DNA from: Actinomycetes bacterium
GTDB taxonomy: Bacteria; Actinomycetota; Actinomycetes; S36-B12; UBA5976
Assembly: GCA_037131045.1 (NCBI GenBank)
Contig: JBAXRV010000003.1
Span: forward strand, 1 to 52,805
Direction of reading: 5' to 3'
Length of the DNA: 52,805 nucleotides
In this document: piece by piece, positions 1,527 to 38,034 of the stretch
Layout of the letters: every line of letters begins with the position of its first letter
Numbering within the stretch: the stretch's first letter is position 1
Position numbers and translations under genes: made by a program
Notes under the pieces: generated by a model
Database searches by the model: none
Told to the model about the DNA's origin: nothing
Seen by the model: only the letters and a program-made list of their open reading frames with translations

Positions 1527-2018
1527 ATGGCTGATTCAAGTTTTGACATAGTGAGCAAGGTTGACCGACAAGAAGCGGACAATGCGTTGCAGCAAACGGC
1601 AAAAGAACTTGTCACACGATTTGATTTCAAAGGAACTGACACCACTGTTGAGTGGAAGGGTGAACTCAACGTGGAAATCACCTCATCTACCGAAGACCGG
1701 GTAAAGGCTGCACTCGAAGTGCTCAAAGAAAAGCTAGTTAAACGAGGGGTCAGCCTCAAGGCGCTTAAAGTTGGCGATCCACGCGTATCCGGCAAGGAAT
1801 ACAAAATCAATTGCGAATTCAAAGCCGGAATTGCACAGGACCAGGCAAAAAAGATCAATAAGTTGATCAAGGACGAGGGACCCAAGAGCGTCAAGACTCA
1901 AATTATGGGCGAGGAACTTCGCGTCACAAGTAAGAATCGCGATGACTTACAGGATGTTCAACAATTACTGAATAATGCCGAACTCGATTTCGCATTACAG
2001 TACGTCAACTACCGCTGA
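1527..2018 (+). CDS. yajQ: YajQ family nucleotide / cyclic-di-GMP-binding protein (UPF0234)
   Basis: 163 aa. Shows the hallmark N-terminus [14 protein letters not shown] and C-terminus LQYVNYR. A GAGGG SD precedes the ATG. Confidence 0.9.
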
Positions 2019-2420
2019 TTATTTTTTGCGTCGGCCACTAGGTGGTTCAGTAAGCAGCGGTGCGTGCGAGCCATCCGCGCGACGGGCACTAGGCAACGAA
2101 GCAGCAAGCTCGTCGATGCCATAAATCACTTGGGCCTTATTTTTACCCGCCGTGATTTCTTGTGACGACCAATACAGCGCATCAAACGGGCAAACATCAA
2201 TACAAATGCCACACCACATACACTGGCTAAAGTCGATCGTGAAGGAATCAAGTACATTCTTCATTGCTGGACGGCGAGCATTGCTGTACTGCGGAGCTTG
2301 CAAATCTGGCTCAGAATGCGCCTCAATTTCAATGCACCAGTCAGGGCATTCGCGAACACACAACATGCACGAAGTGCACGAGCTTGGATGAAGAGCAATC
2401 GATGCATGTGGATTTGTCAC
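2019..2420 (-). CDS. NuoI-like 2x[4Fe-4S] ferredoxin subunit (paralog, not the operon nuoI)
   Basis: Two CxxCxxCxxxCP motifs (CTSCMLCVRECP, CMWCGICIDVCP), spaced as in NuoI/HycF-type subunits. The longest ORF runs to 2501, but GTG at 2420 forms a GTGA start/stop overlap with the upstream gene, so 2420 is preferred. Confidence 0.75.
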   Translation of the reverse strand: MTNPHASIALHPSSCTSCMLCVRECPDWCIEIEAHSEPDLQAPQYSNARRPAMKNVLDSFTIDFSQCMWCGICIDVCPFDALYWSSQEITAGKNKAQVIYGIDELAASLPSARRADGSHAPLLTEPPSGRRKK

Positions 2421-2965
2421 TGCGACCACTCCGGAAATACGCCCGGCGGCAAAGATGGCCGGCGGCGAGCTGCAGTATCTGGATCTACCGCCCCTGGCCA
2501 TGGCCGCTGCGTACGCGGCAGTAACGCAAAGTCGCGGCGAAGTGGAAAGCTATCACTCACAAGTGCGAAGGGATGCGGTTGCGACAATCCGTTGAAAGTA
2601 ATGCCACAAAGTATCTGCATTTCAGATTCGTGGTAACGCGCTGTGGCAAAAAGTTCACTGAGTGACGCAACCCCGCCATCTGTCGTTGTACAACGAATCA
2701 CAACGCCATCGTGGGCATCAGGACTAGTCAGATGCGATGTGATTTCGAATGTGTCATCCATTAAGTGAGTGGCCGTTAGCCATTCGAGCCGAGGATGAGT
2801 TGCCTTGAGCTCACGATGAACAGTGAGCCATTGCTCGACTCCGACTTCAAGCCACATTGCCCGATCGCGATGAGACACATTCAGAGTAGGCGTGGCCAGC
2901 ACTTGAGTACCAGGTGAATCACCTGCCGGCGCGTTTTTCGAATTAAGCGAAGCTGAAGTTGTCAT
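2417..2965 (-). CDS. NuoC-like (complex I 30-kDa family) protein with an Arg/Pro-rich tail
   Basis: 182 aa. ARYHESEMQILCGITFNG aligns with the canonical NuoC segment [18 protein letters not shown] in this window. ATGA overlap with the upstream NuoB-like gene. Confidence 0.65.
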   Translation of the reverse strand: MTTSASLNSKNAPAGDSPGTQVLATPTLNVSHRDRAMWLEVGVEQWLTVHRELKATHPRLEWLTATHLMDDTFEITSHLTSPDAHDGVVIRCTTTDGGVASLSELFATARYHESEMQILCGITFNGLSQPHPFALVSDSFPLRRDFALLPRTQRPWPGAVDPDTAARRRPSLPPGVFPEWSQ

Positions 2966-3366
2966 GAGCTGGCACGCCGCACAAGTTCGGCAGCTTGTTC
3001 TAGGGCGCTGACCAAATCACTAGGCGTTGGTGGGCACCCTGGTACGTAAATATCTACCGGAATAAGTTGGTCTGCCCCATTAATCACCGAATACGAATCC
3101 CAGTACGGTCCGCCGCCGATTGCACATGCGCCAAACGCAATAACAACACGAGGTTCCAGCACAGAATCAAATGCTGCCTGAACATTGTTAGCCAACGCAT
3201 GGGTGAGCGTGCCAGCAATGACGAGCACATGTTGTGAAAGCGTCGGGTCGTTAGATAGAGCCCAGGTATCGTGCGCCTGAGTGATCAAAGTTGCGGCACT
3301 TGCCTCAACGCCACAGCAGGCAAGACCGACTTCAAGAACTTGAATTGGACTAGCGATGCTGCTCAC
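2962..3366 (-). CDS. NuoB-like [4Fe-4S] subunit (NADH-quinone oxidoreductase subunit B family / group-4 hydrogenase small-subunit-like), minimal form
   Basis: 134 aa. Keeps all four cluster-N2-type cysteines: GLACCGVE, FGACAIGGGPY and VDIYVPGCPPTP. These align with [16 protein letters not shown] and LPGCPPRP of the canonical NuoB at 20594-21148. GTG start; an in-frame TGA at 3433-3435 prevents a longer N-terminus. Confidence 0.8.
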   Translation of the reverse strand: MSSIASPIQVLEVGLACCGVEASAATLITQAHDTWALSNDPTLSQHVLVIAGTLTHALANNVQAAFDSVLEPRVVIAFGACAIGGGPYWDSYSVINGADQLIPVDIYVPGCPPTPSDLVSALEQAAELVRRASS

Positions 3367-3470
3367 AAATATGAGCGTAGAGCACCACAGAGATGAGTTT
3401 GGCCACGACGGGGTGTCTTTTTTTAATCTGTGTCAGGCGCGTTCTGGGTTTGGCGGTTCGGAGCAGACGA

Positions 3471-4388
3471 TTAATCAAACTCAACAACATGAGTCAATTG
3501 CCCGCGTCGTTGGCGCACGCTATCCACCGAGAGCACAACCAACGCGACCCACGTAATCGCAAACCCGGCAAACCGAGCCAGTGACATCGGCTCGTGGAAT
3601 ACCCACGTACCCAAAAAGAACTGAATTGTTGAACTGATGTACTGCATAAACCCGATGAAAACTAGCGGAACCCGCACCACCGCTGCGCCATACATCATCA
3701 ATGGGACCGCCGTAATAACTCCAGCGCTTGCAAGCATGAGCGAATGCGATGTGCCATGCGTAAAAAATGAATTCGTACCAAGATGCGCCAACCACATCAG
3801 ATACCCGACTGCGAAAGGCACAAGTACGGCAGTTTCGATGAGCAAACTTTCCATCGCATCAACGTTTGCAACTTTCTTGACATAGCCATACAGCGCAAAG
3901 CTGCTGGACAGTGCTAAGCCAACCCAAGGTGGTCGATGATGTTCCCACGTAATGTAAACCACTGCAGAGAACGCAATTGCGATTGCAACCCATTGAAGTT
4001 TTCGAAGGCGTTCTTTCAAAAAGAAAACACCAAGGCCCACACTAAAGAGTGGCGTAATGAAATATCCCAACGAAGTATCGAGAATGTGTCCATTCATAGT
4101 GGCCCAGATAAAGAGGCCCCAGTTTGAACCAATCAGCAACGAGGCGGCCACGAGTAACAGCAGCGTTTTGCGTTGCGCCAACGCGGCACGAACATGTGTG
4201 ATGCGCTTTTGGAAATACACAAGAGGAACTATGAGAACAAAGCTCCACAACACGCGATTTGCCAGAATCTCCAACGCGCTAGCTGGATGCAACGTAGTCC
4301 AGAAAAGTGGAGCTAGTCCCCAGCCTACGTAGGCGAAACCGCCATAAGTAATGCCACGAGCCAACTGTGTGCGCTCGGGCTTTGTCAT
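3471..4388 (-). CDS. rarD: EamA/RarD family (DMT superfamily) transporter
   Basis: 10-TM profile. The N-terminus MTKPERTQLARGITYGGFAYVGWGLAPLFW resembles E. coli RarD. ATG at 4388 is preferred over the longer GTG at 4427. Confidence 0.75.
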   Translation of the reverse strand: MTKPERTQLARGITYGGFAYVGWGLAPLFWTTLHPASALEILANRVLWSFVLIVPLVYFQKRITHVRAALAQRKTLLLLVAASLLIGSNWGLFIWATMNGHILDTSLGYFITPLFSVGLGVFFLKERLRKLQWVAIAIAFSAVVYITWEHHRPPWVGLALSSSFALYGYVKKVANVDAMESLLIETAVLVPFAVGYLMWLAHLGTNSFFTHGTSHSLMLASAGVITAVPLMMYGAAVVRVPLVFIGFMQYISSTIQFFLGTWVFHEPMSLARFAGFAITWVALVVLSVDSVRQRRGQLTHVVEFD

Positions 4389-4449
4389 AGGAGTAAACCT
4401 ACGGCACAGAGTAATCGTGCGGTTCACATGGGGTTATTGCACAAATGAA

Positions 4450-5436: not shown

Positions 5437-5546
5437 GGTCAGTCCTTTCACAGCGAAAGTTGCTATGACTCCACTGTGAACCTGAAAACCAGTAATGCCA
5501 ACCAAAAACCAGGCAATCTGGTCATTATTGGACCGTGGCTAGCGAA

Positions 5547-6592: not shown

Positions 6593-8161
6593 CTAGCGAA
6601 CGAACAAGCCTGCGTGTATGACTGCATCAATAATTGGTTGCGGCACAACGCCAACTAAAAGAGTCACTGCTGTACATACTGCCACTGCCACGACTGTAAA
6701 TGCGCTCGGAATAACCACATCCGCAGTCGAATGAGTAACTGGCGAGAAGAACATCAACACAATCACGCGAGCATAGAAGAAGGCAGCAATCGCACTCGCG
6801 ACCACAGCGACAATTACTAATGGTGTAGCGCCCCCGTCAACAGCAGCGGTAAAAACTGCAAACTTCGCAGTAAACCCGCTTGTTAGCGGTATGCCCGCGA
6901 GCGCAAGAAGGTACAACCCAAAAACCGAAGCTACAAGCGGTGATTTTTTGCCCAGCCCGGACCATTGCGAAAGGTGATTGGCTTCACCGCTCGAATCGCG
7001 CACGAGCGACACAATTGCAAAGGCACCAACTGTTGTAAAACCGTAAGCGAAGAGATAAAGCAATCCACTTGCTAGACCCCGTGGAGTTGTCGAAATCACT
7101 GCCAGCAAAATAAAACCACTATGCGCAACTGATGAATAGGCAAGCATGCGCTTAATGTCCGACTGTGTGACGGCTAAAACCGAACCCACGATCATTGTCA
7201 AGATTGCGATAACCCAAAGCATTGGTCGCCAATCCCAACGCATGCCAGCAAACGCAACGTAGAAGACTCGGAACAACGCACCAAAGGCCGAAATCTTGGT
7301 GGCAGCGGCCATAAATGCTGTGAGCGGAGTTGGTGAACCTTGATACACATCGGGAGTCCATTGATGAAAAGGAACTGCGCCAACTTTAAAGAGCAACCCG
7401 ACTGTGATCATTCCAATTCCAGTCAAGATCAGGCCATCTTGGCTGGTGTTTGCCATGGCTTGAGCAATTACCCCAAATGTGACAGAGCCCGACACTGCAT
7501 AAATGAGGGCAGCACCAAATAAGAAAAACGCACTTGAAAAAGCACCAAGAACGAAATACTTCAAAGCGGCTTCTTGACTCAGAAGTCGCCGACGTCGAGC
7601 CATACCCGCTAGCAAATAAAGCGGCAGCGAGAAAACTTCCAGAGCCACAAACACAGTGAGCAGGTCGTTAGAAACTGGGAACATCACCATGCCGGCAAGA
7701 GCAAATAGGAACAGCGGCCAAATCTCAGTTTGGAACCAGCCCTGCGAAGTAAACTGCCGTTCGTCTTCACTACCCGGCAACGTTGATGAACGAGCCGCAA
7801 AAGCATCACCCTGTGGGTCAACACTTCGCTCAGCAAAAAGCAGCGCTCCAACAAATCCAACGAGTAGCAGAGTTCCTTGCAAGAACAAACCTGGACCATC
7901 AATTGCAACTGAACCACTGGCTGCAATTTGGCGAAGTCCGTGACCTTGTCCGGCGTTAACACTGAGCCCACCCGAAAGCGGTGCAGTTGCATTGATCACT
8001 ACATAACCAAGTGACGCGATGACACTTCCAAACACCACAGGTAGCTGAAGTGAGCGTCGGGAAGTTCTTGGAGCAAAAGCCTCAATCATGATCGAGATGA
8101 CTCCCGCAGTTAACAAAATGATGATCGGCGCAAGCGCTTGGTATTCAATCGAACTTCTCAC
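6593..8161 (-). CDS. nuoN: NADH-quinone oxidoreductase subunit N
   Basis: 522-aa polytopic antiporter-like protein. Last gene of the nuo run, with a 4-nt overlap with nuoM. Confidence 0.9.
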   Translation of the reverse strand: MRSSIEYQALAPIIILLTAGVISIMIEAFAPRTSRRSLQLPVVFGSVIASLGYVVINATAPLSGGLSVNAGQGHGLRQIAASGSVAIDGPGLFLQGTLLLVGFVGALLFAERSVDPQGDAFAARSSTLPGSEDERQFTSQGWFQTEIWPLFLFALAGMVMFPVSNDLLTVFVALEVFSLPLYLLAGMARRRRLLSQEAALKYFVLGAFSSAFFLFGAALIYAVSGSVTFGVIAQAMANTSQDGLILTGIGMITVGLLFKVGAVPFHQWTPDVYQGSPTPLTAFMAAATKISAFGALFRVFYVAFAGMRWDWRPMLWVIAILTMIVGSVLAVTQSDIKRMLAYSSVAHSGFILLAVISTTPRGLASGLLYLFAYGFTTVGAFAIVSLVRDSSGEANHLSQWSGLGKKSPLVASVFGLYLLALAGIPLTSGFTAKFAVFTAAVDGGATPLVIVAVVASAIAAFFYARVIVLMFFSPVTHSTADVVIPSAFTVVAVAVCTAVTLLVGVVPQPIIDAVIHAGLFVR

Positions 8162-9687
8162 AGCCCGCTCCCTTCTGCACTTGGCGTATCGGGAATTGGA
8201 TCAGTCACGCCCACCGTAGTTTGCACCTGAGTGACAACTGGTTTGATGATATTCAGCGCAACTTGCGGGAAGACGCCAAGGGCAATAATCGCAGCCAAAA
8301 TTGGAGCTACTGCAATTAACTCTCGCGTTGAAATCTCCGATACTGTGCCCGTTACTTCATCACTTGGTTCGCCAGTAATTACCCGTTGGTACAGCCACAG
8401 AATATAAAATGCCGCAAGCACGATACCGAGAGTTGAAATAATCGCAATACCTTGGAACACCGAGAAGGTTCCGACAAGCACTAAGAACTCAGAGACGAAC
8501 GACGACATACCTGGAAGCGCAAGCGATGACAGTCCGGAAATCAGGAAGACTCCAGCAAGCATCGGCGCGACTTTGTTCACTCCACCGAAATCTGAAATCT
8601 TCTTTGATCCGCGACGAGATGACAAGAATCCCACAACCAGGAAAAGGGCGCCGGTTGAGAAGCCATGGTTCACCATGTAGAACGACGAGCCGGCTAGGCC
8701 CTGCGAGGTCATAACAAAAATTCCCAGCACAATAAAACCGAAGTGCGAAATTGACGAAAATGCGACCAGACGCATCATGTCGGTTTGACCAATAGCAAGA
8801 AGTGCGCCGTAGAAAATACTGATAACGGCCAGCACGATAATCACCGGTGCAAAGTAGTGACTTGCATCTGGGAAAATTGGAAGCAGGTAGCGAATCATTC
8901 CAAAGGTGCCGACCTTATCGAGCACTCCAACTAAAAGTGTGGCTGTCCCTGGTCTTGCTTCGCTGGCTGCATCAGGTAGCCACGTATGGAATGGAACCAT
9001 GGGCGCCTTCACAGCAAAGGCAAAGAAGAATCCTAGGAAAAGCATCTTTTGCGTTGCTGGATCCATGTGCAGCGTAGTGAGCACGGAATAGTCGAACGTG
9101 CCTTGACCAAGTACTCGACCCGAGACAACGTAAAGCCCAATGAGCGATGCCAACATGAAGAGGCCACCGACAAGTGAATACAGCAAGAACTTCATCGCAG
9201 CATATGCGCGCTGTGGACCACCAAACCGCCCAATAAGGAAGTAGACCGGAATGAGCATCGCCTCAAAGAACACGTAGAACAAGAACAAATCTGTGGCGGC
9301 AAAGACACCAATCATGAATACTTCGAGTGCCATGATCAGAGCGAAGAATTCTTTCACTGAACCCCGCGACGAATCTTCGGCATCCCACCAACCAGCAATG
9401 ATCACAAGTGGAACCAAAATTGTTGCCATAGCAATTAACAGGCCAGAGATGCCATCAATTCCTAAGCTCCATGAAATTCCAAATGACGGAATCCAATCGT
9501 GCTTTTCCGAATATTGCAGGCCGCCATTGCTGTTATCCAGACCAAGAGTCAAGTAGATGGCAAATGCTGCAGTAACGAGGGGCACAACGAGTGCAACTTG
9601 CTTGGCGAGTGTTTCTATAGCTTGAGGCAACAGAGCAATCGCAACAGCGCCTACGAGTGGCAGCAACATGAGTGTGGTGAGCAACAT
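8158..9687 (-). CDS. nuoM: NADH-quinone oxidoreductase subunit M
   Basis: 509-aa antiporter-like protein (motif VPFHTWLPDA), in the expected operon position. Confidence 0.92.
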   Translation of the reverse strand: MLLTTLMLLPLVGAVAIALLPQAIETLAKQVALVVPLVTAAFAIYLTLGLDNSNGGLQYSEKHDWIPSFGISWSLGIDGISGLLIAMATILVPLVIIAGWWDAEDSSRGSVKEFFALIMALEVFMIGVFAATDLFLFYVFFEAMLIPVYFLIGRFGGPQRAYAAMKFLLYSLVGGLFMLASLIGLYVVSGRVLGQGTFDYSVLTTLHMDPATQKMLFLGFFFAFAVKAPMVPFHTWLPDAASEARPGTATLLVGVLDKVGTFGMIRYLLPIFPDASHYFAPVIIVLAVISIFYGALLAIGQTDMMRLVAFSSISHFGFIVLGIFVMTSQGLAGSSFYMVNHGFSTGALFLVVGFLSSRRGSKKISDFGGVNKVAPMLAGVFLISGLSSLALPGMSSFVSEFLVLVGTFSVFQGIAIISTLGIVLAAFYILWLYQRVITGEPSDEVTGTVSEISTRELIAVAPILAAIIALGVFPQVALNIIKPVVTQVQTTVGVTDPIPDTPSAEGSGL

Positions 9688-9689
9688 GA

Positions 9690-11549
9690 TTAGAGCCTCA
9701 CTAGTAGAAGAATCACAGCGATCAAGACCGCGCCGCCCAGCATTGTTGCCGCATAAGAACGAGCAAAACCGTTTTGAAGTTTGCGACCTTGAGAGGAAAC
9801 GCCAGCGATGACCGAAGCAAGACCAACAATGGACCCATCAACGGCTTTGCTGTCAAACCACACCAGTGAGCGGGTCAGGTACTGACCGGGGCGCATAAAG
9901 ATTGCTTCGTTAAGCGCATCACCATAAGCATCAGCACGAGCCGCGCGAGTCAACAGTCGCACATTTGATGGAGCAACCAGCGGCACCGGACGTCGCCCGT
10001 ACTTGAACCAGGCGTAACCGGCGCCTAAGAGCACCACGCCTAAGGTCACAGGAATCAACACGGTGTTCGACACTTCTTTTGCTGGATCACCATGACCCAC
10101 AACGGGTTCAAGCCACGCGTCAATGTTGCCGATAAATTTCAAAGCCATTCCGCCGAACACTGAACCTACTGCAAGCACAATCATGGGCACTGTCATCGTG
10201 GATGGCGATTCATGAGGATGCACATCGTCCTGCCAACGCGCTTCGCCAAAGAAAGTCATCGTCATCATGCGAGTCATGTAGAACGCTGTGACACCCGCAC
10301 CAATCAGTGTTGCTAGGCCCACAATGAAGTTCTGCCCAAAAGCAGCACTAATAATTTCGTCCTTTGACCAGAATCCCGCAAATGGTGGGATGCCGATAAT
10401 CGCTAGAAAGCCAAGACCAAATGTTGCGTAAGTAATTTTCATAACATTGCGAAGCGCGCCATAGTGCCGCATATTCACATCGTCATGCACTCCATGCATG
10501 ACCGATCCTGCTCCGAGGAAGAGCCCAGCCTTGAACATGCCGTGAGTTAACAAGTGGAAAATAGCGAATGCATAACCGACTGGTCCAAGGCCGGCAGCCA
10601 AAATCATGTAACCGATTTGACTCATTGTGGAACCGGCAAGACCTTTCTTGATGTCGTCTTTCGCAGTTCCGATGAAAGCACCAAGCAGTAGCGTGATTGC
10701 ACCAATGACAACCACCGCAGTGCGTGCAGTCGATGACAGATCAAAAATCGCATGAGCTCGAGTGATCAGGTAAACGCCAGCGGTCACCATGGTCGCCGCG
10801 TGAATCAGCGCTGATACTGGAGTTGGGCCTTCCATCGCATCAAGGAGCCACGATTGCAACGGGAACTGTGCACTCTTTCCGCAAGCAGCAAGCAGTAGTG
10901 CAAGACCAATCCAAGTCACTGAAGTACTTGATGCCTTGCCAGCTGACGCAGCGACACCATCGAAAGTGACCGTGCCAAAAGTTGTGAACATTAACATCAC
11001 TGCAAGCGACAAACCGACGTCACCAACACGGTTCACGACGAATGCTTTCTTGCCCGCAACTGCCGCCGACGGCTTGTGCTGCCAGAACGAAATCAACAAG
11101 TACGAAGCAAGGCCGACACCTTCCCAGCCCACATAGAGCAAAAAGTAGTTGTCAGCCAAGACCAATAACAACATCGCAGCGATAAAGAGATTCAGGTAAG
11201 CAAAAAACTTTCGACGGTTCGCATCATGTTCCATGTAACCGATGGAATAGATGTGAATGAGAGTTCCTACACCCGTAATCAAAAGCACAAATGCCATCGA
11301 TAGCTGATCGATGTGAAGCGCAAACGGAACTTGAAATGAACCAACATTAATCCAGTCGAACAAATGCTGATTAACAGCGCGCTCTTCCGCGGGCCGCCCG
11401 AGCATAGAAACGAAAGTTCCAAGGCCGACAAAAAAGGCGCTTGCCGACATAGTCACGGCAAATAAATGCCCCCACGTGTTTGTGCGACGTCCACCGATTA
11501 GGAGAACTGTGGCTCCTAGTAGTGGCAACCCAATGAGTGCTGCAGTCAT
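9690..11549 (-). CDS. nuoL: NADH-quinone oxidoreductase subunit L
   Basis: 619-aa antiporter-like protein with a long C-terminal extension (lateral helix), in the expected operon position. Confidence 0.92.
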
Positions 11550-11556
11550 GATTCCT

Positions 11557-11856
11557 CTAGTACTTCAACAGGTTAGCTTCGTCGATAGAAGCCGAGCGAC
11601 GGGTACGGAAAATTGTCACGATGATAGCGAGACCAACTACAACTTCAGCGGCAGCAACAACCATCACAAAGAATGCAACGACCTGGCCATCGAGTGTCCC
11701 AGTGATCCGAGACGCGGCAGCAAAAGCCAAGTTTGCAGCGTTGAGCATCATTTCAACACTCATAAACACAATGATTGCGTTCCGGCGCACGAGCACTCCA
11801 AACGCGCCAATCGTAAAAAGGATTCCAGCTAAGACCAGGTAGTTATTCGGATTCAC
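11557..11856 (-). CDS. nuoK: NADH-quinone oxidoreductase subunit K
   Basis: 99 aa with 3 TM segments, placed between nuoJ and nuoL. Confidence 0.92.
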
Positions 11857-12569
11857 GAGGTCACTTCCTTAACGCCATCATCTGGGTTGGATTGAAACTG
11901 TGTGGGTAACGAAGCCTGTGCTGGCGTTCCATCAGGCAACAAGGCAGGAGTGTCCACTGAATTGCTGCGGGCAAGTACGCCAGGGTTTGGCAGTGGAGTC
12001 ACTTGACCAGAACGGGTGCGCTCACGTGAAAGCTCACTTTGAGTTTTGCGCGGTGCCCATCGTTCGCGATGCGCCAAAACCATTGCACCCAAAACCGCTG
12101 TGATGAGTAAGGCAGAAGTTGCTTCGAATGCGAGCAAGTATCGACCAAAAATAAGATGAGCCAGACCTTGTACGTTTCCGCCGTAACCGATGTTTTCATT
12201 GACTAGGCCGATAACCGTTGGGGACGCAGTCGCTGTGATTCCGACAATGATGAGCACACCAAAAGCCAAACCAAGAACAATCGCAATGGCACGTTGCCCC
12301 TTGATGGTTTCAATGAGTGAGTCCGATGAATCAACACCAACAATCATCAGCACAAACAGAAACAGCATCATCACAGCACCGGTGTAGACCACGATCTGCG
12401 TGGTTGCAAGGAATGGCGCTTCGAGCATGAAATACAAAATCGCGAGATTAACCATTGCGAAAGCAACCCACAGCGCACTGTGAACCGCCTTACGAGAAAC
12501 CACAAGCCCTAGAGCACCGACAACTGAGAAGATGGCGGTGACCCAAAAAACTACGGATTCACCGTTCAC
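11853..12569 (-). CDS. nuoJ: NADH-quinone oxidoreductase subunit J
   Basis: 238 aa with TM segments and a hydrophilic C-terminal tail. 4-nt overlaps on both sides. Confidence 0.9.
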
Positions 12570-13108
12570 TTGTCACCTACCGAGTTAGCCGCGGGAGATG
12601 ATGTCACTTTGCCTTCGTAATAATCCTGCTCAGTCATGCCTGGCGCCATCGGATGAGGAGCTTCGAGCATTCCACCGAGTAGTGGGGCAAGCAGATCGTC
12701 TTTGGTGTAAATAAGTTTCTCTCGCGAATTGTCAGCTAATTCGTATTCGTTTGTCATTGTGAGGGCGCGAGTGGGGCAAGCCTCAATACATAAGCCACAC
12801 AAAATGCATCGCAAATAATTAATTTGGTAAACACGCCCGTAACGCTCACCAGGTGAGAATCGCTCTTCGTCAGTGTTGTCTGCACCTTCAACCAAAATTG
12901 CATCGGCTGGACATGCCCACGCACACAATTCACAACCTACGCATTTTTCTAAACCATCTGGGTGACGGTTGAGTTGATGGCGGCCATGGAAGCGCGGCTT
13001 CGGTGGAAACTTATCGCGCTCTTCTGGATATTGCTCGGTTGTTACCTTCTTAAACATTGATAAGAAGGTGACTCCAAAGCCACGAACGATTTGCGGCAAC
13101 TGTGGCAT
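12566..13108 (-). CDS. nuoI: NADH-quinone oxidoreductase subunit I
   Basis: 180 aa with [12 protein letters not shown] and [12 protein letters not shown] (clusters N6a/N6b). Confidence 0.95.
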
Positions 13109-14424
13109 TACTGCTCCTCCCCAACTTCGATACTGGGTACGGTGAGTGGACGATGACGCGAAGGCTGCGCTTGTTGATCTGGCATTGGTGGTACCGGAAA
13201 ACCGCCAGCAAAAGGGTCGAACTCTTCGCTAGCCAACAACTCTTGGCGCTCGGCTTCAAGTGCTTCTGCTTTGCCAGTACGAAGTTCATATACGTATGAA
13301 ATACCGACACCAATAACTAAGACAACCGCTGCTGCAATCATCAAACTACGGGTATCAAAATTGCTGTGGTTCTTTAGCTGACGAGCAGTAGCAACAATCA
13401 TGATCCATACGATCGAAACTGGAATGAGCACTTTCCAGCCAAACTTCATGAATTGGTCATAGCGCAAACGTGGAAGAGTGCCGCGAAGCCAAATGAAGAC
13501 GAACAAGAATGCAAAAATCTTTCCAAAGAACCACAGCATTGGCCACCAACCGGTGTTGGCTTGGCTCCAGAGCGAAATTGGATACGGTGCTCGCCAACCA
13601 CCAAGGAACAATGTCGTTGCCATAGCGGAGACGGTCACCATGTTGACGTACTCAGCTAGGAAGAACAGCGCGAACTTCAGCGAAGAATATTCAGTATGGA
13701 AACCGCCAACAAGTTCACCTTCGGCTTCTGGTAGATCAAAAGGTGCACGGTTTGTTTCGCCAACCATGGCAGTTGTATAAATCACAAACGAAGGTAAGAG
13801 CAACACGATGTACCACAGGTGTTCTTGTCCGGCGACAATTTGTGACGTCGACATTGATGACGCGTACATGAAGACTGCAACGAACGAAAGGCCCATCGCG
13901 ATTTCGTAGCTAATCATCTGGGCACTGGAACGCAAGCCACCAAGCAGTGGATACGTTGAGCCTGATGCCCAACCTGCTAGAACAATTCCGTAAATTCCCA
14001 CCGAAGCAATGGCAAGCACATAGAGAACAGATACTGGGAAGTCTGTGAGTTGTAACGGTGTGACGTGCCCGAGAATCGATACTTCAGGACCGAGCGGAAT
14101 TACCGCAAATGTGAGAAACGCTGTTGTTGCTGAAATGACAGGTGCAATCCAGTACACCGCCAAGTGAACGCCCACTGGAATAATTTCTTCCTTGAGCGCT
14201 AACTTGATGCCATCCATAAGTGACTGCAGCAAACCGAATGGGCCAACACGGTTAGGGCCTATACGCATTTGCATTCGTCCTACAACGCGACGCTCTGCCC
14301 AAATCGTCAACAACGTCATGAGCACCATGATTACGAAGATGCCGAGCACCTTAATCAGTACAACGCTAATTGGATCTTGCCCAAAGATTCCTAAGTCACC
14401 TTGAGCGCCAGTTCGGATGTTCAT
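13108..14424 (-). CDS. nuoH: NADH-quinone oxidoreductase subunit H
   Basis: 438 aa. Contains the NuoH/ND1 segment [23 protein letters not shown] plus an actinobacterial-style C-terminal extension. Confidence 0.95.
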
Positions 14425-16640
14425 GACTCACCTCCGGAAACGTTAACGACTGTTCCTGATGGCAAGTTCAAACAAGCCCCTTCGCTATTGGCAGGAATCC
14501 AGACAACACCATCAGCCATACCTGCAGTTTCAATCACAGGTGCAACTGCCTTGTCGCCACAACATTCCACAGTGGCCATCGCACCATCAACAAGTTTGAG
14601 TTGGCGAGCCGTCTGCGGGCTCACGCGAATTACAGCAACACGTGAGGTCGACGCCAAATATGGTTCACCGTCTTGCAATGTACCCAGGTCAAGCAAGTGA
14701 TGCCACGACGACAGAACAGCCTGACCAGCACCAACGGATTCAGCCGCTGACTTTGCTACTGAGATTTCTGGCTTATTAGCTGACAACCAAAAATCATTGA
14801 GTGATAGTGCGCTTCCCATTTCACGTGCGATTTCGCCAAGCACGTCGGCATCGCTCATTGAGCCTGCCACTGGAGTAGCAACCTTGAAGGAACGGTCGCG
14901 GCCTTCCCAGTTTCGGAAGGTTCCAGACTTTTCTGTCACCACAGCAACAGGAAGGACAACATCTGCAACTGCAGTGACATCGGTATGGCGTGTTTCAAGT
15001 GAGACAACAAACTGCGCCCGTTGCGCTGCTGCTACAAGATCACCCTGGACATCGTTTGCCGAAACGCCTGCGATAACAAGACCCTTAACGTGTGCTCCCG
15101 CATCAGCAATGATTGCGTCGGTGTCGCGACCGTTAATTGGTAGCAGACCTGCATCAAGTGCGCCACGATCGCCTGCACGTCGCGGGATCCACGCAATTCG
15201 TGCTTGGGTCGAAGCCGCGAGGTCAGCAATCGCCTTAAGCAAGCCTGGAGTTTGCGCGGCACGTTCACCAACCACGATGACGCTACCTGGTTCGCTCAGG
15301 TGTGCTGCCGCGCCATTAACTGCGGCAACTTCTTCACGTGGACCAGCGGCAAGAAGAGTTCCCTTCATCTTGGCCAATCCAGCAGTTGTGTATGGGGCTA
15401 CGGAGTACACCCTTGTGCGGTGTGACAAGGCAGCCTTGCGAAGTCGTAAGAACACAATCGGGGATTCATCTTCAGGATCGATGCCGACGAGAAGAACAGC
15501 GGGCGCAGTTTCTAAATCACCGTAAGTGACATCAAGACCGTGGCCTGCAACGTGCTGCGCCAAAAATGCTGTTTCTTCGCTGCTGACAGCGCGTGCCCGG
15601 AAATCCACATCGCGAGTACCAATGACATCGCGGGCAAATGAGTTGTAAGCGAGGGCATCTTCGTAAGTAATACGCCCACCCGTTAATACACCTGTTGCAG
15701 TGCCGGTTGCTTTGAGTCCTGCAGCCACTGCGCGCAGTGCTTCTGGCCACGATGCAGGAACGAGATTTCCATCAGCATCGCGAACTAGCGGATGAGTCAG
15801 CCGACCTTCCCGCAAGTATGGGAAAGCGAAACGACCCTTATCGCAATTCCATTCCTCGTTGACTTCAGGTGCATCCCACGCAAGACGACGCATGACAGTG
15901 CCACGACGTACGTCAGTGCGAAGTGCGCAACCGCTTGCACAGTGCTCACATGCACTTGGGGTACTTACTAAATCGAAAGGACGCGAACGGAATCGGTACT
16001 TGGCCGACGTCAATGCACCAACGGGACAAATTTGAATGGTGTTGCCGCTGAAGTATGAATCAAATGGTTGGTCTGCAGAAATACCAACTTGTTGCTTAGC
16101 GCCTCGTTCTAGCAAATCAATAAAGTGATCTCCAGCGATTTCTTCAGCAAACCGGGTGCAGCGAGCGCACGACACACAACGCTCACGATCAAGAAGTACT
16201 TGGGCACTGACGTTGATTGGTTTTGGAAAAGTGCGTTTGGTGCCATCGAATCGAGTTTCGCCACGGCCAGCAGTCATCGCTTGATTTTGCAGCGGGCATT
16301 CGCCACCCTTGTCGCAAATTGGACAATCCAACGGATGATTAATGAGCAAAAACTCCATCACACCAGATTGCGCTTTTTGCGCCATCTCGCTTGTGTGTTG
16401 TGTCTTAACAACCATGCCCTCGGCAACAGGAATGGCGCATGCCGGTTGAGGTTTCCCTTGACCTTCAATTTCCACTAAACACATACGGCACGCTGCAACA
16501 GGCGAAAGCAGTGGATGATCACAGAACCGCGGAATCGCGGTACCGAGCATTTCAGCAACCCGGATGATGAGCGTGCCAGCAGGAACTTCTACTGCGACAC
16601 CATCAACAGTGAGGTTTACGGTTTGCGTTGTAACAGTCAT
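14421..16640 (-). CDS. nuoG: NADH-quinone oxidoreductase subunit G
   Basis: 739 aa. N-terminal 2Fe-2S ([15 protein letters not shown]), [14 protein letters not shown] and [10 protein letters not shown] motifs, followed by a molybdopterin-like domain. Confidence 0.95.
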
Positions 16641-17938
16641 CGAGTCGCTCCAGCAAATACTGTGGCAGCGATCGGATTAAAGGAATCGTTCGCTGGAGTG
16701 GTTGTTGCTTGCACAAACTCGTCACGGAAATGTTTGAGAGCTGCAGGGAATGGCGTTGCAGCAGCATCACCTAACGCACAGAATGAGCGACCTGCGATCT
16801 GGCCACACAATTCAACAATCTTGTCCAAATCACTTTCTGTGCCATGTCCTTCTTCTAGACGATGGAGCAAGTCGCTAATCCAGTAGGTGCCTTCACGACA
16901 TGGTGTGCACTTGCCGCAGGACTCATGTTTATAGAACGCAAGCCAACCAGCGACCGCGCGAACTACCGACGTCGTTTCATCAAAGATCATCGGAGTACCA
17001 GTTCCCAGCATGGAACCTGCAGCGGCGATGTCTTCGTAGGTAAGCGGAGTATCGAGTAAGTCAGGAGTCAACATCGGAACTGATGATCCACCGGGCAGCC
17101 AAAACTTCACTGTGTGGCCATTGCGCACTCCACCAGCATGTTCCAGAAGCTCACGCATTGTGATGCCTAATGGTGCTTCATAAATACCTGGGCGATTCAC
17201 GTGTCCTGAGACCGCAAACAATTTAAAGCCTGGAGATTTTTCAGTTCCAAAAGAGCGGAACCATTCAACGCCGTTGTTCACGATGTGTGGAATGTTCGCA
17301 ATGGTTTCCACGTTGTTGACACATGATGGCGATGCATACAAGCCAGCAACGGCAGGAAACGGTGGCTTCAAACGTGGCTGGCCGCGACGGCCTTCAAGAG
17401 AATCAAGTAACGCAGTCTCTTCACCGCAGATGTAAGCACCCGCACCGGCATGAAGTACAACATCTAAATTGAAACCTGAACCCATGATGTTCTTGCCAAG
17501 GTAACCAGCCGTGTAGGCCTCGCGAATTGCCGCATTAACCCGACGGAATACGTGTGGCACTTCGCCGCGAACATAAATAAATGCGTGATTGGCGCGCATC
17601 GCAAACGCTGCAATGATGATGCCTTCGATCAAAGCATGCGGATTAGCAAGCATCAATGGAATGTCTTTACAAGCACCTGGCTCGGATTCATCAGCATTGA
17701 TAACTAAGTAGTGCGGCTTGCCATCGTTTTGCGGGACGAACGACCACTTCATACCAGTGGGGAATCCTGCACCACCGCGACCACGAAGTCCGGAATCTTT
17801 CACTAGTGTGATGATCTCGTCAGCGCCTTGTGAAAACGCTTTTTTGAATGCGGTGTATCCACCGTGACGCATGTAGCCGCCGATTGTGTAACTATCAGCT
17901 TCATCCCAATGCGCGGTTAAGACTGGAGTAAGAGTCAT
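16637..17938 (-). CDS. nuoF: NADH-quinone oxidoreductase subunit F
   Basis: 433 aa with GLRGRGGAGFPTG (FMN/NADH site) and ESCGKCTPCREG (N3 cluster). Confidence 0.95.
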   Translation of the reverse strand: MTLTPVLTAHWDEADSYTIGGYMRHGGYTAFKKAFSQGADEIITLVKDSGLRGRGGAGFPTGMKWSFVPQNDGKPHYLVINADESEPGACKDIPLMLANPHALIEGIIIAAFAMRANHAFIYVRGEVPHVFRRVNAAIREAYTAGYLGKNIMGSGFNLDVVLHAGAGAYICGEETALLDSLEGRRGQPRLKPPFPAVAGLYASPSCVNNVETIANIPHIVNNGVEWFRSFGTEKSPGFKLFAVSGHVNRPGIYEAPLGITMRELLEHAGGVRNGHTVKFWLPGGSSVPMLTPDLLDTPLTYEDIAAAGSMLGTGTPMIFDETTSVVRAVAGWLAFYKHESCGKCTPCREGTYWISDLLHRLEEGHGTESDLDKIVELCGQIAGRSFCALGDAAATPFPAALKHFRDEFVQATTTPANDSFNPIAATVFAGATR

Positions 17939-18582
17939 TTCTTTGCCTCCGGTGCTTTCTGTCCGAGTTCCTGAGCACGACGTAATCCAGCAAGCATGAT
18001 GTCGTCGGCTTGGCCACCGAATTCGACGAGGCCGTCATCAAAACCGGCCAAGGTGAGTTCGTTGTCTTTGAATGTTGGAATGCGTGGACCGCGTGAGCTG
18101 TGCACTTCTTCTCCACGTTGTAATGCTTCAACGACAGTCACAGCTGATTGTGGCGTCATGTTGTCTAGGAATTCCCAATTAGCAGTCATGACTGGAGCAT
18201 GAGTACATGCTGCTTGGCATTCAATGCGCTCAAAAGAAATTTTTCCATCTTCGGTAACTTCATCATTTCCAATACCGAACCGTTCGCACAACGTTGACCA
18301 GATTGCATCACCACCGAGAATGCCGCAACCAGGGTTGATGCACACACCGATGTGATACTCACCAACTGGCTTACGGTGATACATCGTGTAGAAGGTTGCT
18401 ACTGCGGCAACATCAGCAGTAGTCAATGCGAGCACGTCTGCACAAAATGCAATTCCATCTGCGCTGACAAAACCTTCTTCGCTTTGTACCAAGTGCAAAA
18501 GTGGAAGTAGCGCTGAACGTGAATGTGGATAGCGCGAAATGATTTCTTGGGCTCGCTCTTGAGTGGTTTGAGTGAATGCCAT
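17935..18582 (-). CDS. nuoE: NADH-quinone oxidoreductase subunit E
   Basis: 215 aa. Thioredoxin-like 2Fe-2S pattern CINPGC ... CQAAC. Confidence 0.93.
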   Translation of the reverse strand: MAFTQTTQERAQEIISRYPHSRSALLPLLHLVQSEEGFVSADGIAFCADVLALTTADVAAVATFYTMYHRKPVGEYHIGVCINPGCGILGGDAIWSTLCERFGIGNDEVTEDGKISFERIECQAACTHAPVMTANWEFLDNMTPQSAVTVVEALQRGEEVHSSRGPRIPTFKDNELTLAGFDDGLVEFGGQADDIMLAGLRRAQELGQKAPEAKK

Positions 18583-19902
18583 TTAGCGATCAACACCACC
18601 CATCACAGGGTCAATTGATGCAACAGCTGCAATGACATCTGCAATCTGGCCACCTTCACACATTGCTGCGGTTGCTTGCAGGTTTGTAAATGATGGGTCG
18701 CGGTAATGGACTCGATAAGGACGAGTGCCGCCATCGGAAACTATGTGTACGCCGAGCTCACCACGTGGTGACTCAACAGCGCTGTATACCTGGCCCGCAG
18801 GAACCGAAAAGCCTTCGGTCACTAACTTGAAATGGTGAATCAATGCTTCCATTGACTGACCCATAATCAACTTGATGTGCTCAAGGGAATTACCTTGACC
18901 ATCAGTTCCAATCGACAATTGTGCTGGCCAGGCAATCTTTTTGTCTTCCACCATTACGGGTCCTGGCTGTAGCCGATCAAGACATTGTTCAACAATGTTG
19001 AGTGACTGTTCCATTTCGGCAAGACGAATTAAGAAGCGACCGTAGGCATCTGATGTTGTTTGGGTACATACGTCGAATTCGTAGTTTTCGTATCCGCTGT
19101 ATGGAGCTGATTTACGGAGATCGTGCGGCAGCCCCGTTGCGCGAAGCACTGGGCCGGTGATGCCAAGTGACATACAACCTGCGAGGTCTAAGTAACCAAC
19201 GCCCGATGTGCGTGCCATCCATACGGAATTATCAACCAGCATGTTTGCTGTGTCTTTGAAACGACGTGGCAACGACTTCACAGCATCGCGAATTTCTTGC
19301 TCTGCGCCGTCTGGCAAATCTTGAGCAACGCCGCCTGGACGAATGTATGCGCTATTCATACGAAGGCCTGTGACGAGTTCAAACAAGTCAAGAACCGTTT
19401 CGCGTTCGCGGAAACCGAAAATCATTGCAGTCAGTGCGCCCAGTTCCATACCGCCAGTTGCAAGTGCAACCAAGTGCGATGAAATGCGATTAAGTTCCAT
19501 CATCATCACGCGGATAACTTGTGCGCGCTCTGGGATCTGATCTGTGATGCCTAAAAGTTTTTCAACACCCAAGCAATAAGCAGCTTCATTAAAGAATGGA
19601 GATAGATAGTCCATGCGAGTGACGAATGTGACACCTTGCGTCCAGGAACGAAACTCCATGTTCTTTTCGATTCCAGTGTGCAAGTACCCAATGCCACAAC
19701 GAGCTTCGGTTACCGTTTCCCCATCGAGTTCCAAGATCAGGCGCAGCACACCGTGGGTGGAAGGGTGCTGTGGTCCCATGTTGACAACAATGCGCTCAGT
19801 TTCACCTTCAGCGGCACCCGTGATTGAATCCCAATCTTGGCCTTGGACAGTAAAAACGCGACCGGTCGTGGTCTCGTAGGTGTCAGCGTAAGTATCAGTC
19901 AT
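18583..19902 (-). CDS. nuoD: NADH-quinone oxidoreductase subunit D
   Basis: 439-aa 49-kDa subunit ([16 protein letters not shown]-terminal DPVMGGVDR). Confidence 0.95.
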
Positions 19903-20597
19903 TAGTTGTACGACCTCCGCTGGTCTGGTGCCGGGACTGTTGCACCCTTGTATTCAACAGGAATACCGCCGAGTGGGTAATCCTTGCGTTGTGGGTGGCC
20001 TTGCCAATCATCTGGCATCTGAATTCGAGTCAGATGTGGATGGCCATCAAACACAATTCCGAAGAAGTCGAACGTTTCACGTTCGTGCCAATCTGCAGTG
20101 GGATAAACCGCAAACAGCGATGGCAAGTGTGGATGTTCATCAGCAACAGTGACTTCGACGCGCAGAGTTCGCACGTGTGTGATGGAACGGAATTGATAAA
20201 CCGCATGTAATTCGCGTCCTGTTTGATGTGGGTAATGAACACCGTTCACTCCAAGACACAGCTCGTATCGAAGCCCTGGCTCATCGCGCAGGGTGCGTGC
20301 AAACGCTACGAGTTCGGAGGCGTGAACATGAATGGTCATTTCATCGAATGCAATAACAATTTTTTCAATTGCCTTTTCGGCGCTGGTGCCAAAGTCAGGT
20401 AGTGAGGCAATAATTTCGTCTACAACCACATCGAATTGGGCGCCGAATGGTCGAGCCGATGCAGCAGGAACGGGAACGATACTGACGAGTCCACCGAAAC
20501 CTGAGGTGTCACCTGAACCTTGCGAACCGAACATTCCTTCGCGCACAGTGACAACTTCAAGCAGTGGCTGTCCCACTGGTATTAAATCTTCACTCAT
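19902..20597 (-). CDS. nuoC: NADH-quinone oxidoreductase subunit C
   Basis: 231-aa 30-kDa subunit with the motif [20 protein letters not shown]. Confidence 0.95.
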
Positions 20598-21148
20598 CGC
20601 ATGAGTCCGGTCTGCAAAATAGTTGGTGTTGCTAATAGTGCGTCGTTTTCAAGTTCGCGAATTTGCTTCACTCGATTTGCGCCAAGTTGAGTATCCGAAA
20701 TCTGGTCGTGCAACTTGAGAAGCGCATCAATCAACATTTCAGGACGTGGCGGACAGCCAGGCAGATAAATGTCAACGGGAACGATGTGATCCACACCTTG
20801 CACAACGGCGTAGTTGTTGAACATTCCACCGGAAGAGGCACACACGCCCATTGCCAGAACCCATTTTGGTGCTGACATTTGATCGTAAATTTGTCGAACA
20901 ACTGGAGCCATCTTTTGGCTCACGCGTCCGGCGACAATCATGAGGTCAGCCTGACGAGGAGAGGCGCGAAACACTTCCATTCCAAATCGCGCTAAGTCGT
21001 AGCGTCCTGCACCTGATGCCATCATTTCAATCGCACAACATGCCAGGCCGAAAGTAGCTGGCCACAATGAATTCTTACGGGCGTAGCCTGCAAGACCTTC
21101 AACGGTTGTCAGCAGAACTCCACTCGGAAGTTTTTCTTCAAGGCCCAT
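20594..21148 (-). CDS. nuoB: NADH-quinone oxidoreductase subunit B
   Basis: 184 aa with [16 protein letters not shown] and LPGCPPRP (cluster N2). Confidence 0.95.
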
Positions 21149-21163
21149 CAGTTAGTTACCTAC

Positions 21164-21532
21164 CTAATCCCACTCAAGTCCGCCGCGGCGCCACACGAAG
21201 GCATACGCAGCGAGAACTGTCAGCATAAAGATGATCATTTCGACTAATCCAAAAAGTCCGAGCGAATCAAATGTCACGGCCCATGGATACAAGAACACAA
21301 TTTCAATATCAAACACAATGAACAGCATTGCTGTGAGGTAGTACTTAACCGGGAACTTGCCGCCACCTAGAGGTTGCGGTGTTGGTTGAATGCCACATTC
21401 GTAGGCTTCAAGCTTGGCTCGGTTGTAGCGTTTTGGGCCAGTAATAGTCGCTGTCACGACAGAGAACGCAGCAAATCCGAACGCTAAAAGTCCAAGGAAG
21501 AGAATTGGCAAGTACACATTTCCTTGACCCAT
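21164..21532 (-). CDS. nuoA: NADH-quinone oxidoreductase subunit A
   Basis: 122 aa with 3 TM segments. First gene of the operon, preceded by a 261-nt leader. Confidence 0.92.
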   Translation of the reverse strand: MGQGNVYLPILFLGLLAFGFAAFSVVTATITGPKRYNRAKLEAYECGIQPTPQPLGGGKFPVKYYLTAMLFIVFDIEIVFLYPWAVTFDSLGLFGLVEMIIFMLTVLAAYAFVWRRGGLEWD

Positions 21533-22483: not shown

Positions 22484-22557
22484 GGCACTAGTCTGCCATC
22501 AATGTGCCAATCCAGCCCACTGCCCAGATTGCTAATTGGCTCTAGGCTGGAGTTGTT

Positions 22558-35734: not shown

Positions 35735-35737
35735 GAG

Positions 35738-36670: not shown

Positions 36671-36690
36671 AACTGACCTTTAGGCGAAGA

Positions 36691-38022: not shown

Positions 38023-38034
38023 CGAAAGAGAATC

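Follow-up and report, generated by a model that had tools for sequence, protein, structure and literature searches.

To our knowledge, in complex I and all of its known relatives a NuoB-type cluster subunit is paired with a partner of the NuoD or large-subunit type, and the pair sits on a NuoH-type base. Here we describe a unit of three genes that encodes NuoB-, NuoC- and NuoI-like proteins with neither partner beside it. It lies on contig JBAXRV010000003.1 of an Actinomycetes bacterium (assembly GCA_037131045.1), in a stretch of 52,805 nucleotides (nt) that we call the window. We refer to the three proteins as B-like, C-like and I-like and to the unit as the trio. The trio very likely derives from the Nuo2 system of actinobacteria.

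Among described systems, the complex I Q-module (NuoB/C/D/I; Nqo6/5/4/9; PSST/30 kDa/49 kDa/TYKY) has the same folds as the trio, with [4Fe-4S] motifs equivalent to N6a, N6b and N2. The trio differs from it in having no NuoD, and hence no canonical quinone pocket, in lacking the NuoH docking elements and in carrying a family-specific NuoC tail; sequence identity is only 29-37%. The arrangement of complex I (NDH-1), in which NuoB is encoded with NuoD and a NuoH-type base, was not seen at the trio loci. Group-4 [NiFe] hydrogenases, MBH/MBS/Mbx and Ehr contain distant homologues of NuoB (MbhJ/MbsJ, HycG) and NuoC (MbhK/MbsK), but the trio lacks both their large subunit and their membrane subunits, and no locus had this combination.

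The closest described system is the nuo2 operon, SCO4599-4608 in Streptomyces coelicolor (PMC9239103). Streptomycetes encode nuoD2 separately, elsewhere in the genome (PMC8388888). The published description of nuo2 has NuoC and NuoL lacking (PMC9239103). The loci collected here correct that annotation, as both genes are there. Streptomyces anthocyanicus (L135, 8893-19057), Streptosporangium sp. NBC_01495 (L051) and Thermostaphylospora chromogena (L052) carry a full ten-gene cluster, nuoA2-B2-C2-H2-I2-J2-K2-L2-M2-N2, which includes a NuoC-type gene (456 amino acids [aa] in S. anthocyanicus) and a NuoL-type gene. Its third gene is a NuoC-like gene bearing the same C-terminal tail as C-like. Full clusters are also found on many soil metagenome contigs. 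Older annotations name the C2 protein simply 'dehydrogenase'.

Relationship of the trio to Nuo2

The trio consists of the following parts.

2962..3366, minus strand: B-like gene, very probably NuoB2-derived; 134 aa, GTG start, one predicted [4Fe-4S] site (C17, C18, C81, C111)
3232..3303, minus strand: variable loop of B-like, residues 22-45, ASAATLITQAHDTWALSNDPTLSQ; replaces the 'RHDF.R.G...F..GPRQAD' segment of NuoB2 and NuoB
2417..2965, minus strand: C-like gene, very probably NuoC2-derived; 182 aa, without a cofactor site, putative scaffold subunit
2420..2515, minus strand: C-terminal tail of C-like, RTQRPWPGAVDPDTAARRRPSLPPGVFPEWSQ; conserved, NuoC2 family signature
2019..2420, minus strand: I-like gene, very probably NuoI2-derived; 133 aa, GTG start, two predicted [4Fe-4S] sites

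The initial annotation of this DNA, made from the sequence alone, had proposed three translationally coupled minus-strand genes here. An open reading frame (ORF) check reproduced the genes, their coordinates and their overlaps, which are ATGA at 2962-2965 between B-like and C-like and GTGA at 2417-2420 between C-like and I-like. For I-like, the alignment of homologues favoured the GTG start over an upstream ATG at 2501.

Profile searches supported all three family assignments. B-like matched Pfam Oxidored_q6 (7.5e-20) and the NCBIfam NuoB subfamily PRK06411 (120.4 bits against a cut-off of 116). C-like matched Pfam Complex1_30kDa (3.2e-13) and, under the cut-off of 122, NCBIfam NuoC_fam (39.5 bits). 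The best NCBIfam match of I-like was NuoI TIGR01971 (5e-15, 55 bits), again under the cut-off (113). The AlphaFold2 model of the C-like core (residues 21-130) had a predicted local distance difference test score (pLDDT) above 92, and the top Foldseek matches of C-like were all NuoC/NDUFS3/Nqo5 chains with probability 1.00. The predicted cluster ligands are conserved: C17, C18, C81 and C111 of B-like are kept in 53-54 of 54 homologues. The two CxxCxxCxxxCP motifs on which the initial annotation based its NuoI assignment stand in NuoI-type spacing in I-like, and its nine cysteines, eight of the ferredoxin type and a ninth in CPDWC, are kept in 50/50 homologues.

Direct comparisons placed the trio nearer to Nuo2 than to the canonical Nuo proteins of the same window, to which identity is 37% for NuoB, about 30% for NuoC and 29% for NuoI. 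In BLASTP, B-like scored 106 bits to NuoB2 versus 81 bits to the canonical NuoB, and C-like scored 73 bits to NuoC2 versus 24 bits to the canonical NuoC. I-like had 53% identity and 109 bits to NuoI2, versus 49 bits to the canonical NuoI. B-like and NuoB2 also have the signature GGPYWDSY in common. The ninth cysteine of I-like (CxxCxxCxxxCPDWC, window 2331-2345) occurs in NuoI2 as well, whereas canonical NuoI has CPADA in its place. C-like ends in the NuoC2 tail WPGA.EP...RR..LPPGV. Because the bit scores favour Nuo2 and the GGPYWDSY, CPDWC and tail signatures are shared, the three proteins are very likely orthologues of NuoB2, NuoC2 and NuoI2. We hold the evolutionary identification of the trio as a Nuo2 derivative with high confidence.

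The surroundings are also alike. Neither type of cluster contains nuoD, nuoE, nuoF or nuoG. In many lineages of both, korAB, the genes for a two-subunit 2-oxoacid:acceptor oxidoreductase, lie divergently upstream, and a yajQ or M48 peptidase gene forms the downstream boundary. The trio differs from nuo2 in that all seven membrane genes (A2, H2 and J2-N2) are gone, both in the window and in all trio-type loci, and in that the proteins are shortened to 134, 182 and 133 aa. B-like is without the PRQAD loop and the N-terminus, I-like is without its N-terminal segment, and the window is without adjacent korAB.

No nuoD, nuoE, nuoF or nuoG was found at the trio or nuo2 loci, about 90 in all, and no large-subunit relic (NuoD/HycE-type) was found in any locus examined. 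Likewise, no D, H, A or J-N paralogue stands beside the trio, in the window or at any trio locus. The only NuoD and NuoH found among the window genes with Pfam are those of the canonical nuo operon. This agrees with the initial annotation, which reported no NuoD-type or membrane partner at the trio locus. Its broader conclusion, that such a module is unexplained and has no partner, stands only in part: there is indeed no NuoD at the locus, but the nuo2 relatives carry NuoA/H/J/K/L/M/N paralogues. It had also reasoned that a dedicated NuoD and membrane partner encoded with relatives elsewhere would make the trio an ordinary split operon. A membrane partner does occur with the homologues, but a NuoD gene never does, and the trio lineages have truly lost the membrane genes.

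Segments lost from B-like and I-like

B-like keeps all four cluster cysteines, as the initial annotation had said, but the N-terminal deficit of 45 residues given there is too large. The GLACC motif stands at residue 14 in B-like versus 34 in the canonical NuoB of the window, and the deficit is about 20 residues (20-25 at the N-terminus, with about 29 more missing at the C-terminus). Trio B proteins mostly have 8-20 residues ahead of GLACC, versus at least 25 in full clusters. The I proteins are shortened in the same region. Ahead of the first cysteine motif, trio I proteins mostly have 12-19 residues versus at least 49 in full clusters, and I-like lacks the N-terminal segment of ~35-40 residues (..QYPE..) that is common to NuoI2 and canonical NuoI.

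The second loss in B concerns the loop after the CC motif. The PRQxD motif of NuoB is present in 22/22 full-cluster NuoB2 proteins versus 1/53 trio B proteins, and the lone exception (L120) is a mis-ordered full cluster. Fisher's test gave p about 1e-18, a value that is inflated by shared ancestry as it carries no phylogenetic correction. The whole segment (RHDF.R.GVIPFA.GPRQADLM) is near-invariant in the 22 full-cluster proteins and replaced by unrelated variable sequence in 52/53 trio proteins. B-like is thus without both elements found ahead of the Rossmann-like core in NuoB, the N-terminal segment and the (S/G)PRQ(A/S)D loop. In complex I structures, these two elements contact NuoH, NuoA, NuoD and the quinone cavity.

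These losses bear on the two hypotheses of the initial annotation, namely that the trio swaps into Nuo or forms a soluble module for another partner. In the first case, the trio would replace NuoB/C/I in a hybrid complex I with the canonical NuoD and membrane arm but without NuoEFG, giving a ferredoxin- or KorAB-driven proton pump comparable to the 11-subunit NDH-1. Only a few genes do indeed separate the trio from the canonical nuo operon, which lies upstream of it in the same orientation, and deletion of its own membrane genes under strong selection on the rest would be sensible if another membrane arm served. Hybrid nuo/nuo2 machinery has also been speculated for Streptomyces (PMC9239103). 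However, the proximity to nuo mirrors an older synteny of nuo, korAB and nuo2 in Streptomyces (SCO4562-75, 4594-95, 4599-4608), and the low identity to the canonical subunits speaks against an exchange. Above all, B-like and I-like have lost the PRQAD loop and N-termini that are invariant whenever NuoH/NuoA paralogues are encoded. We therefore consider the hybrid quite unlikely and favour the soluble module, for which korAB provides a candidate partner.

The C-terminal tail of C-like

The initial annotation had called the tail of C-like unusual. The tail is there, but it is no quirk of this protein: nowhere is the family better conserved than in the C-terminal stretch WPGAVEPD..ARRRPSLPPGV..EW. 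W156, P157, G158, P162, R168, P174, G175 and W180 do not vary among 55 sequences that range from Nanopelagicales to Streptosporangiales. An exhaustive profile search with the C-like family returned 412 representative clusters at E below 1e-10, many of which aligned through the tail. High-GC members with the tail carry WPGAKEPGES..RRQMLPPGVP and come from Streptosporangium, Nonomuraea, Planobispora, Streptomyces and related genera. Because the tail is unchanged in both the full-cluster and the trio architectures, its role is not contact with the membrane arm. It had no match among PDB chains, and its AlphaFold2 model has a pLDDT of 52-70, as expected for a segment that would fold only against a partner.

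I-like also has a conserved basic C-terminus (PPSGRRKK). Both proteins end in conserved proline-rich, strongly basic tails, ARRRPSLPPGVFPEW in C-like and EPPSGRRKK in I-like (2420-2515; 2019-2072), which resemble 'PPG + basic' motifs in NuoI2/NuoC2. They may represent a shared docking or membrane-association motif. In Streptomyces, NuoC2 proteins (P0157, P0164, P0166, P0423) continue past the tail for 250-330 low-complexity residues rich in Pro, Ala, Gly, Arg and Ser, with no Pfam domain. A similarly long low-complexity C-terminus with an RPPG.LPK(R/K) motif is found in Streptosporangiales NuoI2. We considered whether natural fusions might reveal a partner, but in the long NuoC-like proteins with the tail (300-500 aa), the extensions are only of this low-complexity kind.

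Distribution, selection and parallel reduction

A search with C-like found 311 relatives of 145-165 aa, some of them labelled as metagenome-assembled genomes (MAGs) of Nanopelagicales or Actinomycetes. All long contigs examined had B-C-I followed by convergent yajQ. A scan of species-representative genomes gave 38 trio loci, all from freshwater Actinomycetota MAGs, with a shared synteny of nuoA-N, polyprenyl synthase, rarD, B-C-I and yajQ. The neighbourhood survey that the initial annotation called for thus shows a trio conserved with the same flanks. With more than 50 distinct loci carrying this B-C-I unit, the arrangement is not due to chance. Two trio contigs (L028, L044) are publicly labelled 'Bifidobacterium breve' and 'Bifidobacteriaceae'; these look like taxonomic mis-assignments because the synteny is of the Nanopelagicales type.

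The ratio of nonsynonymous to synonymous substitution rates (dN/dS) was low for all three genes, with median pairwise values of 0.04 for B, 0.15 for C and 0.02 for I (sequence pairs with 0.1 < dS < 1.5). Together with the full conservation of the Fe-S ligands, this indicates that the trio is functional and not decaying. The initial annotation had raised the alternative that the trio is decaying and without function, a remnant of some larger operon for a complex-I-like system or a group-4 hydrogenase. The trio is indeed what remains of a ten-gene operon. Nonetheless, the ORFs are intact in more than 50 loci with their translational coupling kept, and dN/dS of 0.02-0.15 and conservation of all 4 + 8(+1) cysteines rule out decay. 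A hydrogenase origin fits no better: against solved structures, B-like scores ~97 bits to complex I NuoB/PSST chains versus 61-67 bits to the small subunits of group-4 hydrogenases, MBH and MBS, and no locus holds a large-subunit relic. We consider both forms of this explanation refuted, and a remnant extremely improbable.

Eighty further metagenome loci sorted cleanly into full clusters and trios, and the trio keeps the flanks of the full nuo2 locus. Convergent yajQ follows approximately 45 of 49 evaluable trio loci, and it also follows nuoN2 in two full clusters (L085, L098). The simplest history would start from an ancestral locus korBA / A2-B2-C2-H2-I2-J2-K2-L2-M2-N2 / yajQ, and the Nanopelagicales-type genomes would then have lost A2, H2 and J2-N2 by in-situ deletion.

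One trio locus, L069, from a Streptosporangiales-like genome, stands apart from the others. Its proteins are close to those of the Streptosporangiales clusters (215, 267 and 257 bits to L052 for B, C and I), and its genes are arranged korB< korA< ... B2-C2-kinase<-I2, followed by a Peptidase_M48 gene, without A2, H2 or J2-N2. The kinase is the opposite-strand Ser/Thr kinase insertion of Streptosporangiales, and the Peptidase_M48 gene is the one that follows nuoN2 in Streptomyces. The L069 B protein also lacks the PRQAD loop. Because L069 keeps the kinase insertion and M48 gene of its own lineage, gene order places the reduction to B-C-I as an event that happened at least twice independently, with the PRQAD loop lost and the N-terminal segments of B and I lost or shortened each time. 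Of all the findings, these parallel reductions argue most strongly that B-C-I functions as a unit by itself. A first neighbour-joining tree had suggested many independent reductions. We dropped this reading for L077, L091 and L115, whose gene order, with canonical nuoL/M/N upstream and yajQ downstream, is that of Nanopelagicales, and claim only L069 as independent.

The Nuo2 family never encodes NuoD in its operon, and at least two lineages, one of them the Nanopelagicales-type freshwater actinobacteria, keep only NuoB-NuoC-NuoI under very strong purifying selection.

The korAB neighbour

In all three cultured genera (L051, L052, L135), and on metagenome contigs with full clusters as well, a two-subunit 2-oxoacid:acceptor oxidoreductase is encoded divergently upstream of nuoA2. 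The korA product matches TIGR03710, 2-oxoacid:acceptor oxidoreductase alpha, with 658-673 bits, and the korB product is a PorB/KorB-type beta subunit. Published gene numbers in S. coelicolor give the same order of korAB, two-component system and nuo2. SCO4594/4595 are 2-oxoglutarate:ferredoxin oxidoreductase subunits (PMC12323332, PMC8981147), SCO4596-98 are a two-component system and nuo2 follows. PMC5020499 describes this two-subunit type of 2-oxoacid:ferredoxin oxidoreductase (OFOR) as having a single cluster and no ferredoxin-like domain.

Among the trio loci, L003-L008, L011-L013, L016, L018, L040, L054, L056-L059, L065 and L077 have a korB<korA< pair ahead of the B-like gene in divergent orientation. 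By approximate count, korA adjoins 17/37 evaluable trio loci, and 6/13 full clusters by script (8 visible in the locus listing). At the trio locus of the window, korAB is absent and rarD lies 104 nt upstream instead, while the sister locus L007 keeps korA. A distance tree built from concatenated B+C+I has korAB adjacency as its basal state, with one loss in a large crown clade and another, separate one in the lineage of the window.

Genes for regulators are inserted in several nuo2 loci. In the Streptosporangiales type, the opposite-strand Ser/Thr kinase gene lies between nuoH2 (or C2) and nuoI2 (L051:12807-14240, L052:11583-13136, L069:10664-12145). In Streptomyces, the two-component system between korAB and nuoA2 comprises two histidine kinases and a response regulator. 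These insertions may hint at dedicated regulation of nuo2.

Proposed function

The likeliest partner of this strongly conserved module is probably a 2-oxoacid:ferredoxin oxidoreductase, and the module itself is probably soluble. More specifically, we propose that the trio is a membrane-less Nuo2 derivative that acts as a soluble relay of three [4Fe-4S] clusters for a KorAB-type oxidoreductase, a proposal to which we give an even chance. The trio would no longer sit on a NuoH-type base or form a quinone pocket, and would instead be a soluble or peripherally attached wire of three [4Fe-4S] clusters. Electrons would enter at I-like, with its two clusters, either from the KorAB-type enzyme, which has one cluster, or from a small ferredoxin, and would move on to the B-like cluster as the exit point. 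I-like is a natural acceptor because the two-subunit OFOR has no ferredoxin-like domain and I-like carries two clusters. C-like would be the scaffold, with its invariant tail clamping the B/I subunits or the donor partner. Because adjacent korAB has been lost in the lineage of the window, the donor there would have to come from a gene at another site or be some other low-potential enzyme.

The PorD/KorD delta subunit offers a parallel for the proposed role of I-like. Like that subunit, I-like is a 2x[4Fe-4S] protein, and it is encoded beside an OFOR without such a domain. I-like matches TIGR02179 PorD_KorD only weakly, however (38.1 bits, under the cut-off of 60), very probably derives from NuoI2 and is accompanied by NuoB- and NuoC-type partners. 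We infer that the two are alike in function but do not belong to one family.

In the complete ancestral Nuo2, KorAB would take the position of NuoEFG, the B, C and I subunits would link it to a proton-pumping membrane arm, and NuoD would be supplied in trans, as by nuoD2 in streptomycetes (PMC8388888), or not at all. The analogy is with 11-subunit ferredoxin-dependent relatives, a comparison that draws on PMC4453560 and established knowledge. These complexes (cyanobacterial and chloroplast NDH-1; Fpo-type without the F420 input subunit) are without NuoEFG and have a low-potential Fe-S donor at the NuoI side. They keep NuoD and the whole membrane arm, whereas the trio keeps neither.

Several points weigh against a KorAB-linked soluble relay. 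A NuoB-type cluster normally works against NuoD, and a canonical or unlinked NuoD may partner the trio. The lost B and I segments face NuoH/ND1, NuoA/ND3, NuoD and the quinone cavity in complex I, a mapping that is knowledge-based. The function of nuo2 itself 'is unclear', and its products 'may cooperate' with the canonical complex (PMC9239103). Finally, approximately 20/37 evaluable trio loci, including the window and the large crown clade, are without adjacent korAB.

This last point would suit an Fe-S module that is independent of KorAB, either a general multi-cluster carrier or a peripheral membrane reductase, with korAB adjacency only a historical leftover and the basic C-terminal tails (ARRRP..., PPSGRRKK) mediating membrane or partner binding. 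In keeping with this, selection is equally strong in the more than half of loci that lack korAB, and the basic tails are conserved with or without it. On the other hand, no alternative partner gene is consistently nearby. The divergent korAB adjacency spans lineages whose NuoC2 proteins are only about 30% identical and survives two reductions, and we favour a functional link because this is otherwise hard to explain. A module independent of KorAB is thus unlikely, though a serious candidate.

A further extension of the KorAB-linked relay is tentative and, in our view, on the doubtful side. The trio would form an autonomous, NuoD-free soluble B-C-I Fe-S complex, in effect a three-cluster 'ferredoxin' of a novel type assembled from pieces of complex I, that docks on the two-subunit OFOR through the NuoC2 tail to give a five-subunit 2-oxoacid dehydrogenase. 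The ten-subunit Nuo2 of the ancestor would be a respiratory complex driven by KorAB, independent of NADH and without an operon-encoded NuoD.

If the trio is an autonomous electron-transfer module, the 'connecting' Fe-S portion of complex I is able to function without a membrane complex around it. The korAB link offers a testable hypothesis for Streptomyces nuo2, namely 2-oxoacid/ferredoxin-driven entry into the respiratory chain, and points to a candidate redox partner for the actinobacterial KorAB enzyme.

In a limited literature search, we found no account of a B-C-I derivative without membrane subunits, of such derivatives arising in parallel, of the NuoC2 tail signature or of the korAB link. 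On the trio, nuo2 function and OFORs in acI/Nanopelagicales, the same limited search returned only statements of nuo2 as uncharacterised. The nuo2 operon itself is already known. We give only moderate weight to the absence of a published description of the trio.

Neighbouring genes and other features of the window

The surroundings of the trio in the window are as follows.

3367..3470, no strand: spacer of 104 nt between rarD and the B-like gene; the site of divergent korA-korB in sister lineages
1527..2018, plus strand: yajQ (DUF520); NCBIfam YajQ 190 bits; convergent with I-like, zero spacer
3471..4427, minus strand: rarD (EamA transporter); TIGR00688 rarD 201 bits; upstream neighbour, synteny kept in related loci
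6593..21532, minus strand: canonical 14-gene nuoA-N operon; Pfam for A-J, gene calls on identical contigs for K, L, M and N
116-1339: NDH-2 gene

These features match the initial annotation, which had placed rarD 104 nt away and a convergent yajQ at zero spacer, so that the unit is exactly three genes, and had listed the complete nuo operon and NDH-2; profile matches and gene calls confirmed the latter two. The stop codons of yajQ and I-like directly adjoin, tail-to-tail (window 1527-2021). Consensus scans around the trio found no sigma-70-like promoter and no terminator above chance, there was no terminator-like hairpin between yajQ and I-like, and no Rfam family scored above threshold. GC content is uniform (0.50) and so does not point to recent transfer.

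Menaquinone biosynthesis genes flank the respiratory genes (window 21794-23835 and 33063-38925). They comprise a UbiE/MenG-type methyltransferase and a MenF-type isochorismate synthase, then MenD, MenC, MenB, MenE and MenA-type genes. The 575-aa and 343-aa ORFs at 33063-35734 were considered as korAB candidates but are MenD and MenC. As listed, these two ORFs have 88 nt in common, so one of them may have a mis-set start.

Three further ORFs are of note. A 333-aa Ala/Ser-rich ORF with a TTG start (4504-5505, minus strand) has no Pfam match and is conserved between polyprenyl synthase and rarD in L003-L008. A 474-aa ORF (31349-32773, plus strand) also has no Pfam match. At 25582-28572 (plus strand), a 996-aa ORF fuses APH phosphotransferase, Peptidase_M23 and class-III aminotransferase domains, an unusual fusion.

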